64,000 nucleotides of DNA, taken from sequence record PV654397.1. One strand, written 5' to 3'. Of this stretch, positions 1 to 64,000 are shown piece by piece. The DNA comes from Escherichia phage WPEC5. How positions within the stretch are numbered: the first letter of the stretch is position 1; each line of letters begins with the position of its first letter. The translations under genes were made by a program, and so were the position numbers. The notes under the pieces are model-generated. The model ran no database searches, was not told where the DNA came from, and worked only from the letters and a program-made list of their open reading frames with translations.

Positions 1-21
1 GTACTTTTCAGATGTAGTCAT
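1..21 (-). CDS. 5' end of a gene running off the window start (partial)
   Basis: ATG near 19-21 on minus strand preceded by GGAG Shine-Dalgarno; reading frame open to window edge. Confidence 0.3.
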
Positions 22-66
22 AGTAATCTCCAATTAAAAAGTACTGCCACTATAACAGTACTGATA

Positions 67-426
67 TTAAATGTAACGTTTCTTTTTATAATCATACCCT
101 ACTTCTTTGTAAAAGTCAAACAAAGAAGCATGGGTAAACGTAGGTAACAGATCATATGGGTGCTGATAGTTCGCAATACCAACAACTGCCAGCATTGATT
201 CAGCCGTTCTGGAATTTTCACTATCCCATTCATCTAAACGCCACAGTGAACAAAGAACTTCACGTTCGTGTTGCTTACCAAGAAAGAATTCAGCTTCACG
301 GTCACGAAATGCACCTACGCTGATAGTACTTTTGTACCAGTCTTTCTCACCATAAGCTGGCATACGGATAATGTGTTTTTCTTGAGCTTCACCAAAGCGA
401 TGAAGAAATGCCACATAATCACTCAT
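67..426 (-). CDS. hypothetical protein (119 aa)
   Basis: ORF track; co-oriented tight packing; start overlaps stop of upstream small ORF (ATGA). Confidence 0.6.
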   Translation of the reverse strand: MSDYVAFLHRFGEAQEKHIIRMPAYGEKDWYKSTISVGAFRDREAEFFLGKQHEREVLCSLWRLDEWDSENSRTAESMLAVVGIANYQHPYDLLPTFTHASLFDFYKEVGYDYKKKRYI

Positions 427-593
427 AACTTATAACCCATTACTGGTTTTGAATAATCAGGTTCATAAAACTTTTCAGTACTGAACCCTCTGAAATTACC
501 ACGACCTGGCTTCGGACAAGCCATCCCTTCTACACCGTGCTTACCCTGAACCTTTCCGCAGTTTTTGCATTTGTATCCAATAACTTCTTTCAT
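423..593 (-). CDS. small zinc-ribbon-like protein (56 aa, hand-called)
   Basis: Own translation MKEVIGYKCKNCGKVQGKHGVEGMACPKPGRG...; CxxC plus distal Cys; ATGA overlaps on both sides; below track threshold. Confidence 0.4.
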   Translation of the reverse strand: MKEVIGYKCKNCGKVQGKHGVEGMACPKPGRGNFRGFSTEKFYEPDYSKPVMGYKL

Positions 594-850
594 TGTGCAT
601 CCTTTGGAATAGTGTTAAGGCGTGTACGGTTTACAATCTTCCTGCACATGAGATTAAGATCTTGCCCATGACGCATCTCATGGCAAGCATACAATGTGCC
701 ATCATAGTTAAGTTTAGTCAAATTCTGGCGAATGAACTCTGCATCAGCCTCCTGAACTTTAGGTGCACATCCACAAAGAGTAATGGACACAAATACTGTT
801 AACGTACTGAATATATTTTTCATGATATTTTTTCTCATTGAGTAAAGCAT
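590..850 (-). CDS. putative small lipoprotein (true start probably near 823)
   Basis: Internal start MKNIFSTLTVFVSITLCGCAPK resembles signal peptide with lipobox-like LCGC. Confidence 0.5.
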   Translation of the reverse strand: MLYSMRKNIMKNIFSTLTVFVSITLCGCAPKVQEADAEFIRQNLTKLNYDGTLYACHEMRHGQDLNLMCRKIVNRTRLNTIPKDAQ

Positions 851-1215
851 GTATTATTGTCAATAAGTTCGTTAATAACAGTTTGAACTTCAATAGAATT
901 GATATCAACTTTATAATAATTATAGTTTTTAACTCTAAAATGTTCTTTAGTGATATCAACATTGAAATCAATTATTTCCAAATTACCAATATATTCAGAT
1001 TTGTTTGTTCTCAAATCTATAAATGAAGATTCGGCTTTTTCTGGCTTACATAATAATAATTTATATTTTTCTGGTTCCCATGAAAAATTAAACAGATCAT
1101 AATAATCATCAATAACAAAACGAATATTATCAGTACTTAATTTTTGTGATTTACCTTTTTTATACACAGCTACTATTTTTAAATCAAACGTTTTTCCATA
1201 ACGGGTAATTTTCAT
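835..1215 (-). CDS. hypothetical protein (126 aa)
   Basis: ORF track; no recognisable motif. Confidence 0.55.
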   Translation of the reverse strand: MKITRYGKTFDLKIVAVYKKGKSQKLSTDNIRFVIDDYYDLFNFSWEPEKYKLLLCKPEKAESSFIDLRTNKSEYIGNLEIIDFNVDITKEHFRVKNYNYYKVDINSIEVQTVINELIDNNTCFTQ

Positions 1216-1218
1216 AAT

Positions 1219-1398
1219 TTAATCACCTATACATAAGTACTCGATTGATGGTTTACCATTAACTAACACAATACCAGTGTGAGTTAATACACAGTTCGTT
1301 GGTGCTTCTTCAAATACTGATACGTAAATGTATGAACCATTACTAACTGAACAAGATAATACCATAAGAACGGCGATTAGTACAAGTAAAATTTTCAT
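1219..1398 (-). CDS. small secreted or lipoprotein-like protein (59 aa, hand-called)
   Basis: Own translation MKILLVLIAVLMVLSCSVSNGS...; hydrophobic N-terminus with LSC lipobox-like motif. Confidence 0.35.
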   Translation of the reverse strand: MKILLVLIAVLMVLSCSVSNGSYIYVSVFEEAPTNCVLTHTGIVLVNGKPSIEYLCIGD

Positions 1399-1404
1399 AT
1401 GAAC

Positions 1405-2052
1405 CTACTTTTTTGATTTATGTAATGCAATTTGTACTCGCGTAATGAACTCACGCTCTACTTCATCTGAATTAACACCATCATATTGTGTTTTGAATAG
1501 TTCCATAGCTTTGATAGCCATTTGCACAGAAAGATCAGCAATACTTTCAGTACTGGTAGTCTCAAATACATTTTTGAGGCTTAGTTCACCATCATCAATA
1601 CATTCTTTAGGTTTGTTGATTTCTGGTTCTTGGATGTATCGTAATGCTTTGTATTCTGCTTTGGACAGTTTTCCAGTCCATCTTGGATCATTGAACAAGT
1701 CATGCATTGTAATGCCAGCTTCACCCATTAGGTGTACTAACTCTTCATTTCGGCGAATATGCTTTTCTTCATCTTTGAAATTTTTGTAAGTGTAAGCACA
1801 ACGCATGATAGCCAAACGTACTTCACCACTTTTAGTAATTGTATACGTATGAATTGCATTATCGTAGTCACTTTCCCATTGTTGACCCGCATATTCGTAC
1901 CAAAGGTCATTTGTCTCCCAACGGAGCATTTTACCTTCTAGTAGCTCGTCAATCATTTTAGCCATGTTACCATGATATTCACAACTGGTAATATTAAATC
2001 CACCATTGTACTTTGCAAGGTACAGAATCTTTTCTTGTGATACATTTTTCAT
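1405..2052 (-). CDS. hypothetical protein (215 aa)
   Basis: ORF track; no recognisable motif. Confidence 0.6.
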   Translation of the reverse strand: MKNVSQEKILYLAKYNGGFNITSCEYHGNMAKMIDELLEGKMLRWETNDLWYEYAGQQWESDYDNAIHTYTITKSGEVRLAIMRCAYTYKNFKDEEKHIRRNEELVHLMGEAGITMHDLFNDPRWTGKLSKAEYKALRYIQEPEINKPKECIDDGELSLKNVFETTSTESIADLSVQMAIKAMELFKTQYDGVNSDEVEREFITRVQIALHKSKK

Positions 2053-62432: not shown

Positions 62433-62443
62433 ATTGGTATTCC

Positions 62444-62626
62444 TTAATTTGGTGGATTTGGATGTAATAACTGATCTATATAATTTAAATGTTCTATTGT
62501 AACTAATGAAAGATAATAATTGTAATTATCTATACCACCCTTTAAATGTATATTGTAATACATCTTGATACTTACTAATAAAGAATCATTTAAATCATTT
62601 ATTGCTTTTGTATTAACGGTTTTCAT
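62444..62626 (-). CDS. small hypothetical protein (60 aa)
   Basis: ORF track only. Confidence 0.3.
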   Translation of the reverse strand: MKTVNTKAINDLNDSLLVSIKMYYNIHLKGGIDNYNYYLSLVTIEHLNYIDQLLHPNPPN

Positions 62627-62765
62627 TAATGTTCTTCTCTTAAAAAACGCTTAATGGCACAATCTAAATAAAAATCATAATACATCATATCTCTATTCTT
62701 AACCCATACACAATAATCTGCATTAATATTTCTTAATAATATATTCATATTATAATCTTCACACC

Positions 62766-63176
62766 CTAATCGTGCCATTTAATAGGATACTCCGTTCCAT
62801 TTATTGTATAAGATATAATCCATCCGTAATGAATAGGATGATTTTTGTCTGAATCAGGAATAAAATATAAAGATGTACTGGGGTTATAACTGAATAAATC
62901 GTTGTTACCAATTGTAAAATGTGATAACTCAATCTTCCTTGTACCTGTACTTGGACGAAGAACATTCTTAACACCGAAGACTGTACCTTGATATTTCTCG
63001 GAAAATTCAAACAATGCATCTGCAATTAAATCACGAAACTCCGCATGTATGGTTTCAAAAAAATCTATATTACACGATGTTTTAATATCCTTGAACTCCT
63101 TATATAAAGAGCTTCTTGTATTCAAAAGAAATATTACTTTTTTAAGATCCTGAACTATTTCTGGATTCATATTCAT
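62766..63176 (-). CDS. hypothetical protein (136 aa)
   Basis: ORF track. Confidence 0.5.
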   Translation of the reverse strand: MNMNPEIVQDLKKVIFLLNTRSSLYKEFKDIKTSCNIDFFETIHAEFRDLIADALFEFSEKYQGTVFGVKNVLRPSTGTRKIELSHFTIGNNDLFSYNPSTSLYFIPDSDKNHPIHYGWIISYTINGTEYPIKWHD

Positions 63177-63426
63177 TTATCTCATTCTGTAACTTATGCA
63201 TCAAAATTTGTATATTAATTTTTCGTCCAAGGTGATTGAGAAATTTCTGTACCATTTCTTCTTGTACTGATGTACCAAGATAAAATAACATATTAAATTC
63301 CGATAACCTCAGAGCAAAATCGTCATCTCCCCCTTGTAAACAAAAATCCCTGTACTTTGATGCATACAAATAACGGTTTATTTTTTTGTACATTTGGGTC
63401 TGCATTGTATCTCCTTTTTCATGCAC
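63142..63426 (-). CDS. YLGT-motif small protein paralog
   Basis: NMLFYLGTSVQEEMVQKFLNHL. Confidence 0.45.
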   Translation of the reverse strand: MHEKGDTMQTQMYKKINRYLYASKYRDFCLQGGDDDFALRLSEFNMLFYLGTSVQEEMVQKFLNHLGRKINIQILMHKLQNEINEYESRNSSGS

Positions 63427-63590
63427 CTTATTAGATTATCAACGTATTGATCCTGTACTATTGTCCCTAGATAAAATGATACTTCGAACTCTGATAATTT
63501 TATATTGAAAGGATCTACATATACATCTTTAATAAACTCTTTGTACTTCAACATATATGCATTAGGTATATTCTTATATATCGATTTCAA
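63378..63590 (-). CDS. YLGT-motif small protein paralog
   Basis: EVSFYLGTIVQDQYVDNLIRCM. Confidence 0.45.
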   Translation of the reverse strand: MKSIYKNIPNAYMLKYKEFIKDVYVDPFNIKLSEFEVSFYLGTIVQDQYVDNLIRCMKKEIQCRPKCTKK

Positions 63591-63885
63591 TGATCCTCCC
63601 TGACATACCTTGTATTAGCTTATCATACATATCGAGCATCACTTTTTGAATACTAATTAATACTGGCATCGTGCAAATATCAATGTCGTATATTAAGCTG
63701 TACTGGAATAATTCCTCTTCCTGCATGTGTACTAAATTAGGTAAAAGATAATTGTCTGCCTCTTCATCCTGGTACTTGAAATGCATAACACCATCCTTTT
63801 TGTACAAAAGAATGTCAATATCACCTAACTCTTCTGCATAACCAAAAATACATATACTCGATGTTTTTGCTATATTAAATTTCAT
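63574..63885 (-). CDS. FQ-motif family paralog
   Basis: EEELFQYSLIYDID. Confidence 0.55.
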   Translation of the reverse strand: MKFNIAKTSSICIFGYAEELGDIDILLYKKDGVMHFKYQDEEADNYLLPNLVHMQEEELFQYSLIYDIDICTMPVLISIQKVMLDMYDKLIQGMSGRIIEIDI

Positions 63886-63899
63886 ATTCTTCTCTTATA

Positions 63900-64000
63900 T
63901 GTAGAATTCACATACGCGTTGAACAAAATTCTTTGGAAGATGACAATGTGCAATCATCTGCTTTTGTACTTCCTTCATGTCTTCGAATGTAAATCCTAAA
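63900..64000 (-). CDS. 3' end of a gene entering from beyond the window (partial)
   Basis: Two minus-strand frames are open to the window edge; stop near 63,905 followed by AAGAGAAG Shine-Dalgarno and ATG of 63574..63885; frame not resolved. Confidence 0.3.

Follow-up and report, generated by a model that had tools for sequence, protein, structure and literature searches.

The six-base palindrome AGTACT is 9- to 11-fold over-represented both in a 64,000-base stretch of the Escherichia phage WPEC5 genome (record PV654397.1; the whole stretch is called the window below) and in the genome of a close relative, phage fEgEco12. The word is probably a recognition site for some DNA-reading protein. 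More specifically, we propose that AGTACT, in its preferred form cAGTACTg, is read in duplex DNA by a protein specific to this phage clade or to its hosts, and that it serves early promoters and the marking of phage DNA; we give this proposal a probability of roughly 45%. Four properties of the word argue for a duplex site: specificity for the exact hexamer, flanks that are mirror images of each other, a higher density where there is no coding constraint, and registers within promoters that are conserved among relatives. The end of the window carries a second anomaly, a block of genes whose sense strand is free of the triplet ACT.

The window has a GC content of 33.6%, and every sizeable open reading frame (ORF) in it lies on the minus strand. 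It comes from a jumbo coliphage of the genus Asteriusvirus and is 98-99% identical to the phages Ecwhy_1 and fEgEco12, and 81-88% identical to other members of the genus (ph0011, slurp01, PBECO4 and 121Q). For genome-wide analyses, the whole fEgEco12 record (374,733 bp) was pieced together from nine segments. The ends of this record are an exact direct terminal repeat of 20,993 bp, and genome-wide counts refer to the non-redundant 354 kb. The window corresponds to the reverse complement of record positions ~28,900 to 92,840. By this correspondence, it lies just inside the left terminal repeat and covers early and middle genes.

We counted 193 copies of AGTACT in the window, against a mean of 17.7 in 100 dinucleotide-preserving shuffles (standard deviation 4.0, maximum 27). 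The octamer CAGTACTG occurs 41 times where a first-order Markov model predicts ~0.8, and the core tetramer GTAC occurs 558 times against 193 expected. The copies occupy the following region:

1 to 55,505, no strand assigned: AGTACT-bearing region with all 193 copies, a density of 3.5 per kb; 41 copies are part of CAGTACTG.

An earlier sequence-only reading of the window had claimed this over-representation, and the shuffles bear it out. The positions it gave for the first 5.1 kb are correct but slightly undercounted: there are 16 rather than 15 hexamers up to position 5,071, and 8 rather than 7 octamers (at 56, 476, 1548, 2456, 2547, 4008, 4485 and 5070). Its statement that the motif recurs through the window holds as far as the final copy at 55,500-55,505, but the last 8.5 kb contain none.

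Such an excess could be produced artificially by codon or dipeptide usage, with pairs such as Ser-Thr, Val-Leu and Gln-Tyr generating the word. ACT is indeed the favoured threonine codon outside the ACT-free block (43%), but enrichment is found in every frame and in intergenic DNA. By codon phase the copies divide into 78, 41 and 60, as the sequence-only reading had suspected from the different frames it saw, and a further 14 lie between genes, in the 8% of the window that is intergenic. Shuffling synonymous codons within genes, which preserves the proteins and also the motif-inflated codon usage, yielded 63.2 ± 6.2 copies (maximum 81 in 200 shuffles), and shuffling codon order yielded 38.7. 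Codon-phase Markov models of order 1, 2 and 3 predicted 16.5, 37.1 and 74.7 copies, against 180 observed in genes. Codon-preserving nulls thus give 37 to 75 copies where 180 to 193 are observed. The sequence-only reading had named reproduction of the counts by a codon- and dinucleotide-preserving null as the result that would overturn its claim; these models were run, they do not reproduce the counts, and the excess stands. Together with the phase tabulation they refute the codon or dipeptide explanation, to which we assign next to no chance.

The genome of fEgEco12 gives a more complete picture of the motif. Its non-redundant sequence contains 977 copies of AGTACT (110.6 expected) and 221 copies of CAGTACTG (5.4 expected). 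The exact hexamer is enriched 8.9-fold, whereas the nine classes of one-mismatch words range from 0.46- to 2.3-fold. Only two flanking positions are informative, -1 (C 44%, G 9%) and +6 (G 47%, C 8%), and they are mirror images. We found no preferred spacing or periodicity between sites in this genome. Density is 5.2 per kb between genes, compared with 2.7 per kb in genes of one strand and 2.3 per kb in genes of the other. The motif is not confined to regulatory regions: 853 of the 977 copies (87%) lie within genes.

This specificity for an exact palindromic hexamer is what one expects of the target of a type II restriction-modification system. AGTACT could accordingly be the target of a phage-encoded DNA methyltransferase, with methylation switching early promoters between incoming and replicated DNA and shielding the phage from restriction of the ScaI/Eco255I type. 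A Dam-family adenine methyltransferase is in fact encoded in the window:

31,241 to 31,765, minus strand: Dam-family N6-adenine DNA methyltransferase (Pfam PF05869, E = 2e-32).

A C5 methyltransferase is also present in relatives (PMC7247149), and the DNA of the Klebsiella phage RaK2 is reportedly cut only by methylation-tolerant enzymes (PMC3622015). However, methylation by itself does not account for genes being enriched ninefold in the word. The cytosine methylation reported for RaK2 is at CpG, a dinucleotide that AGTACT does not contain, and literature searches on this phage group turned up no methylome data. As the clade-specific reader of AGTACT, the Dam-family enzyme is a possible but unsupported candidate, and its presence is uninformative because its family occurs in more than 1,200 unrelated phage records. 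Overall, we regard a methylation target as unlikely.

In the terminal repeat of fEgEco12, intergenic copies of AGTACT lie within sigma-70-like promoters at fixed registers:

AAAAGTACTTGCAA: overlaps the upstream boundary of -35.
AGTACTaTTGACA: lies upstream of -35 at a distance of one base.
TTGACAGTACT: overlaps the downstream boundary of -35.
AGTACTgTATAAT or AGTACTggCATAAT: lies immediately upstream of -10.

These promoters frequently have two copies, 20 to 22 bp apart, and of the ~30 strong promoter matches in the repeat, the majority have at least one. The Cronobacter phage GAP32, which belongs to another genus, uses the identical two-box design (AAAAGTACTTGCAA ... AGTACTTTATAAT) at 13 of the 26 promoter-like sites in its first 30 kb, and the register relative to -35 and -10 is therefore conserved between the two relatives. 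GAP32 also has a second class of promoters, in which the -35 element sits inside a GC-rich hairpin and no AGTACT box is present. One arrangement in the window resembles the promoters of the first class:

40 to 62, minus strand: two copies of AGTACT 17 bp apart, promoter-like and upstream of a gene start, reading atatcAGTACTgttatagtggcAGTACTttttaattggagattactATG.

Here AGTACTG is followed by the -10-like hexamer TATAGT, and the layout matches the early promoters of the relatives.

Frame independence, the codon-aware nulls, intergenic density, symmetric flanks, equality of the strands and promoter registers all support the claim of the sequence-only reading that selection acts on the nucleic acid and not on the protein; most probably it acts on duplex DNA. 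That reading had also listed candidates: a protein-binding site, a target for modification or nicking, and a structural or packaging signal. Among these, a binding site or operator alone has positive evidence.

We envisage a putative reader that recognizes the site symmetrically and with the precision of a restriction enzyme, and that would be specific to the enterobacterial jumbo phage clade or to its hosts. It may have two uses. The first would rely on the AGTACT boxes built into a class of early sigma-70-type promoters, where one copy is placed at or overlapping the upstream edge of -35 and a second directly upstream of -10, about two helical turns away. A protein bound to these boxes, or a modification of them, would gate early transcription. 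The second use would involve the other copies, about a thousand, dispersed across genes and spacers. For these, selection would maintain density and not position, as in other words by which genomes mark their own DNA.

The distribution of the motif among phages and hosts bears on what the reader might be. Besides Asteriusvirus, AGTACT is enriched in the Klebsiella phage RaK2 (119 copies against 12 expected in 50 kb), in the Cronobacter phage GAP32 (253 against 13.8) and in the Yersinia phage fHe-Yen9-04 (111 against 13.3). Enrichment is thus common to four genera of enterobacterial jumbo phages. In contrast, the word is depleted in the Pseudomonas relative PA5oct (3 against 14.3) and the Xanthomonas relative XacN1 (0 against 9.3; both 100-150 kb). 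A 50-kb sample of Escherichia coli K-12 has 3 copies where 4.8 are expected, which corresponds to 0.06 per kb compared with 2.8 per kb in the phage. AGTACT is therefore about 45 times denser in phage DNA than in E. coli DNA, and like a self-marking word it is both denser in its own than in foreign DNA and independent of reading frame.

Because enrichment is limited to phages of Escherichia, Salmonella, Klebsiella, Cronobacter and Yersinia, while the Pseudomonas and Xanthomonas relatives are depleted, one may suppose that the reader of AGTACT is a host protein restricted to Enterobacterales, for instance a nucleoid-associated or cell-division-linked protein, which the phage exploits. The binding site of SlmA, GTGAGTACTCAC, which belongs to nucleoid occlusion in E. 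coli, has the identical six-base core (PMC3020112). SlmA was nevertheless rejected, as its published requirements for G at position 1, T at position 2 and a purine at position 3 (PMC3020112) are not respected by the phage. In fEgEco12, G at -3 (16%) and T at -2 (34%) are near their background frequencies of 19% and 31%, and position 3 of an SlmA-type site is preferentially C (44%), with G reduced to 9% from a background of 19%. The SBS-type (SlmA binding site) sequence GTRAGYRCTYAC has 0 matches in the 354 kb. We know of no further host protein with this specificity. The phylogeny of the phage subclade is moreover confounded with host order, and overall a host protein appears improbable.

Several points weigh against the reading of AGTACT as a duplex site for promoters and self-marking. 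We found no reader protein for it, and any function of the ~850 intragenic copies is presumed. Nearly all copies in the window are intragenic, the arrangement at 40-62 being the single promoter-like case there, and the promoter evidence comes from the terminal repeats of relatives, outside the window. Individual sites are also only slightly better conserved than control words. Compared with ph0011 (88% identity), 60% of AGTACT sites are intact, against 52-54% of control hexamers; compared with fEgEco12 (99% identity), the figures are 95.8% and 94.8%. This weak positional conservation indicates that selection on any single site is weak. Finally, with phage phylogeny and host order confounded, a host factor is not separable from a phage factor.

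Weak positional conservation is also what one would expect if the excess were a neutral by-product of context-specific mutation, of a repair process resembling very-short-patch repair, or of gene conversion biased towards AGTACT. Comparison of close relatives shows sites both gained (5) and lost (2), with 4 ambiguous cases, and T4-like phages recombine heavily, which would favour such a process. Precursor words should then be depleted, but the one-step precursors of AGTACT stand at 1.1- to 2.3-fold, with AGTATT/AATACT at 1.32-fold. In addition, the excess is uneven along the fEgEco12 genome, with regions differing at least threefold in density and intergenic DNA having twice the density of genes:

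Terminal repeat: 138 copies observed, 6.0 expected.
Paralog array of 20.7 kb adjoining the ACT-free block: 79 observed, 5.9 expected.
Most of the genome: 5.6- to 9-fold excess.
Tiny-gene array, 5-kb core: 2 observed, 1.4 expected.

The tiny-gene array consists of ~30 genes of ~70 amino acids at record positions ~21,800-26,800, just past the end of the window and adjoining the terminal repeat. Unlike the remaining genome, it shows no excess of GTAC or AGTACT. Its paralogs are ~34% identical to one another, and the array is also found in 121Q and UE-S1, where it is equally poor in GTAC; this divergence and distribution mark it as old and a long-time resident. The lack of an excess in the array means that the AGTACT excess is no uniform by-product of replication or repair. 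The promoter registers conserved across genera are a further difficulty. We therefore disfavour repair or mutation bias, chiefly on the grounds of undepleted precursors and an uneven effect, and consider a neutral origin quite improbable.

The sequence-only reading had also pointed to a 19-nucleotide identical stretch containing the motif, which is present at both of the places it gave:

473 to 491, no strand assigned: copy 1 of TTTCAGTACTGAACCCTCT, within a 56-amino-acid Cys-rich ORF (423-593, minus strand).
14,383 to 14,401, no strand assigned: copy 2 of TTTCAGTACTGAACCCTCT, within the DNA ligase ORF (13,948-15,366, minus strand).

It does not represent a meaningful longer element. The lengths of pairwise matches around AGTACT decay geometrically, with 63, 19, 6, 1, 3, 0, 1 and 1 pairs for lengths 12 to 19, and the one 19-mer and one 18-mer are the tail of this distribution. 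A longer repeated element behind TTTCAGTACTGAACCCTCT was for this reason rejected.

A full-text search of the literature on this phage group returned nothing on AGTACT enrichment, on these promoter boxes or on a triplet-free island, and nothing relevant on ScaI with RaK2 or on methylation or promoter data in Asteriusvirus. Papers on the phages CBB, RaK2, phAPEC6 and Sharanji describe sigma-70-like promoters, terminal repeats and methyltransferases; the AGTACT motif is absent from them. Short palindromes are usually purged by phages. A ninefold enrichment conserved in four genera is a sign of a hitherto undescribed, sequence-specific factor, which would be linked to the early transcription of a large group of potential therapy phages. 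The motif offers a direct experimental handle on its reader.

Almost immediately after the final AGTACT, the composition of the window changes:

55,574 to 64,000, minus (sense) strand: ACT-free island spanning at least 8,427 bases; the sense strand lacks ACT, and the plus strand accordingly lacks AGT.

From the remaining window, 165 copies of ACT would be expected on the sense strand of the island, and there are 0, in every frame and spacer across ~22 genes. The corresponding gap in fEgEco12 (8,293 bp) measures 19 times the maximum length expected for the triplet. Gaps for other triplets are at most 2.5 times as long as expected, so the island is unique in that genome. Codon usage follows the constraint: ACT, elsewhere the commonest threonine codon (43%), falls to 0%, ACA rises to 74%, and TTA takes the place of CTN codons. 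GTAC is still enriched in the island, in the form of sense-strand AGTACA (44 copies against 4.0 expected), which indicates that a GTAC-containing word is kept despite a conflicting constraint. A variant of the motif is also found in a promoter of the island:

59,249 to 59,308, minus strand: terminator-like hairpin followed by a TTGACA-17-TACAAT promoter; the spacer has GAGTACAA, an ACT-free variant of the motif.

With an internal terminator and promoter, the island has more than one transcription unit.

The island is shared by relatives, in which the ACT-free stretch has the following lengths:

fEgEco12: 8,293 bp.
UB: 7,643 bp.
PBECO4: 7,620 bp.
121Q: 7,511 bp.
Salmonella phage SD-15_S21: 7,212 bp.
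JNE01: 4,447 bp.
Turkey5: 4,402 bp.

Absence of ACT is strict in these 7 of the 9 relatives examined, although island proteins are just 39-66% identical between subclades. It is relaxed in the other two, ph0011 and UE-S1, which belong to different subclades and whose islands are partly refilled (1-7 ACT per kb, compared with ~22). A scan of IMG/VR for further island-bearing contigs recovered 121Q itself only. Searches of the island proteins against Pfam and PHROGs matched families of unknown function only. A total and strand-specific absence over ~22 fast-evolving genes implies a very strong agent with three-base specificity, and the two naturally relaxed variants offer material for testing what it is.

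Comparison of strict and relaxed relatives highlights one gene as the candidate agent that imposes the avoidance:

60,100 to 60,669, minus strand: 189-amino-acid ORF (phrog_19795), whose ortholog is deleted in both relaxed relatives.

The deletion is clean in both ph0011 and UE-S1. Nevertheless, JNE01 and Turkey5 have only 30% homologs of this ORF and still have a strict, though shorter, island, and for this reason the link between loss of the gene and relaxed avoidance is suggestive only. We found no Pfam match, no structural neighbour and no recognizable fold for the 189-amino-acid protein.

The boundary of the island runs through the middle of an array of related genes:

36,567 to 63,885, minus strand: 36 diverged paralogs with the motif [DE][DE]xx[FY]FQxSL, 11 inside the island and 25 outside.

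The members are 100-210 amino acids long, with F133 and Q134 nearly invariant, and neither Pfam nor a structural comparison gave a match for the family. The boundary may have shifted over time, or sequences may have been exchanged among paralogs. In the fEgEco12 part of the array outside the island (equivalent to window positions 37,313-58,000), sense-strand AGTACA is fivefold enriched (46 copies against 9.4).

Our best guess is that the early transcripts of the island would be immune to an ACU-specific endoribonuclease; alternatively, an enzyme might act on ACT or AGT in single-stranded DNA. Total absence of a triplet from the sense strand is as expected of immunity to an mRNA interferase. 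We know of no nuclease with specificity for ACU. The known RNA toxins of E. coli K-12 cut ACA (MazF), UAC (ChpB) and GCU (MqsR), not ACU (PMC8546651).

The island raises the question of whether the enriched hexamer is itself a signal in RNA, with AGUACU acting as a processing, decay or binding site that is possibly linked to the agent forbidding ACU. A palindrome is present in RNA from whichever strand is transcribed, the island shows that a sense-strand constraint exists in this phage, and the motif includes UAC, the cleavage motif of ChpB (PMC8546651). However, enriching the cleavage site of a toxin would do harm, single-stranded RNA gives no grounds for flanks that are reverse complements of each other, and some copies are upstream of -35. 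The island also keeps AGUACA without ACU, so that the enriched word and the forbidden triplet are separable. Taking both sides together, a role in RNA seems improbable to us.

A link between the hexamer and the ACT-free strand could also come from programmed nicking or priming. AGTACT would then specify a five-base primer, pppGUACU, with synthesis starting past a cryptic T as it does for T4-type primases, or else a nick for clamp loading. This is the sole idea that joins the two features. Primase trinucleotide sites typically have a pyrimidine in the middle, as ACT does, and the phage is annotated with a T4 gp61-like primase. But trinucleotide sites require no enrichment, palindromic flanks and promoter placement are left unexplained, and nicking a palindrome on both strands would sever the DNA. 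We consider nicking or priming very improbable.

If the two anomalies are taken together, this jumbo phage clade might carry two undescribed codes. In the first, AGTACT would be a self-mark whose phage-encoded reader controls early promoters and tells phage from host DNA. The second would be an ACT/ACU-specific activity, an endoribonuclease or a single-stranded-DNA-modifying enzyme and perhaps the 189-amino-acid protein at 60,100-60,669, to which the 8-kb early block would be immune through the purging of every ACT. We offer this combination tentatively and think it more doubtful than not.

Elsewhere in the window, homologs of two T4 proteins are adjacent:

21,638 to 22,570, minus strand: T4 polynucleotide kinase/phosphatase homolog.
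23,393 to 24,535, minus strand: T4 RNA ligase 1 homolog.

Polynucleotide kinase/phosphatase and RNA ligase 1 form a tRNA-repair pair that counters anticodon nucleases.

Both features resemble known systems in some respects. To our knowledge, the ACT-free island has no described precedent in any phage genome. It is comparable to the GCU-free mqsRA transcript, to mRNAs engineered to lack ACA as protection from MazF, and to the strand bias of EcoP15I sites in T7, since in all of these a short asymmetric word is missing from one strand, in all frames, across a gene block. It differs from the toxin-triplet-free transcripts in its extent (8 kb, ~22 genes and at least two transcription units) and in that no ACU nuclease is known to us, and from type III restriction sites such as that of EcoP15I, which are 5 to 6 bases long, in being defined by a triplet.

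As for AGTACT, the Chi sites of RecBCD and AddAB and the DNA uptake sequences (DUS) and uptake signal sequences (USS) are likewise short exact words that occur far above chance, in all frames of coding DNA and more densely than in foreign DNA, and whose density is kept while copies turn over. They are, however, asymmetric words of 8 to 12 bases in cellular genomes with known readers, whereas AGTACT is a six-base palindrome, carried by a phage and embedded in promoters. Operators of phage early promoters and the MotA boxes of T4 share with AGTACT the fixed -35/-10 registers, the paired sites about two helical turns apart and a layout conserved across genera, but operators sit at few promoters, while AGTACT is mostly intragenic, at 2 to 5 copies per kb. 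The SlmA site is a palindrome with the same central AGTACT, and the host range of the phages coincides with SlmA-bearing organisms; its G1, T2 and R3 flanks are missing or disfavoured in the phage. Lastly, the type II site of ScaI and Eco255I is the identical hexamer, with the same discrimination between exact and one-mismatch words. Phages normally avoid sites of this kind, as XacN1 and PA5oct do, whereas this clade enriches AGTACT ninefold.

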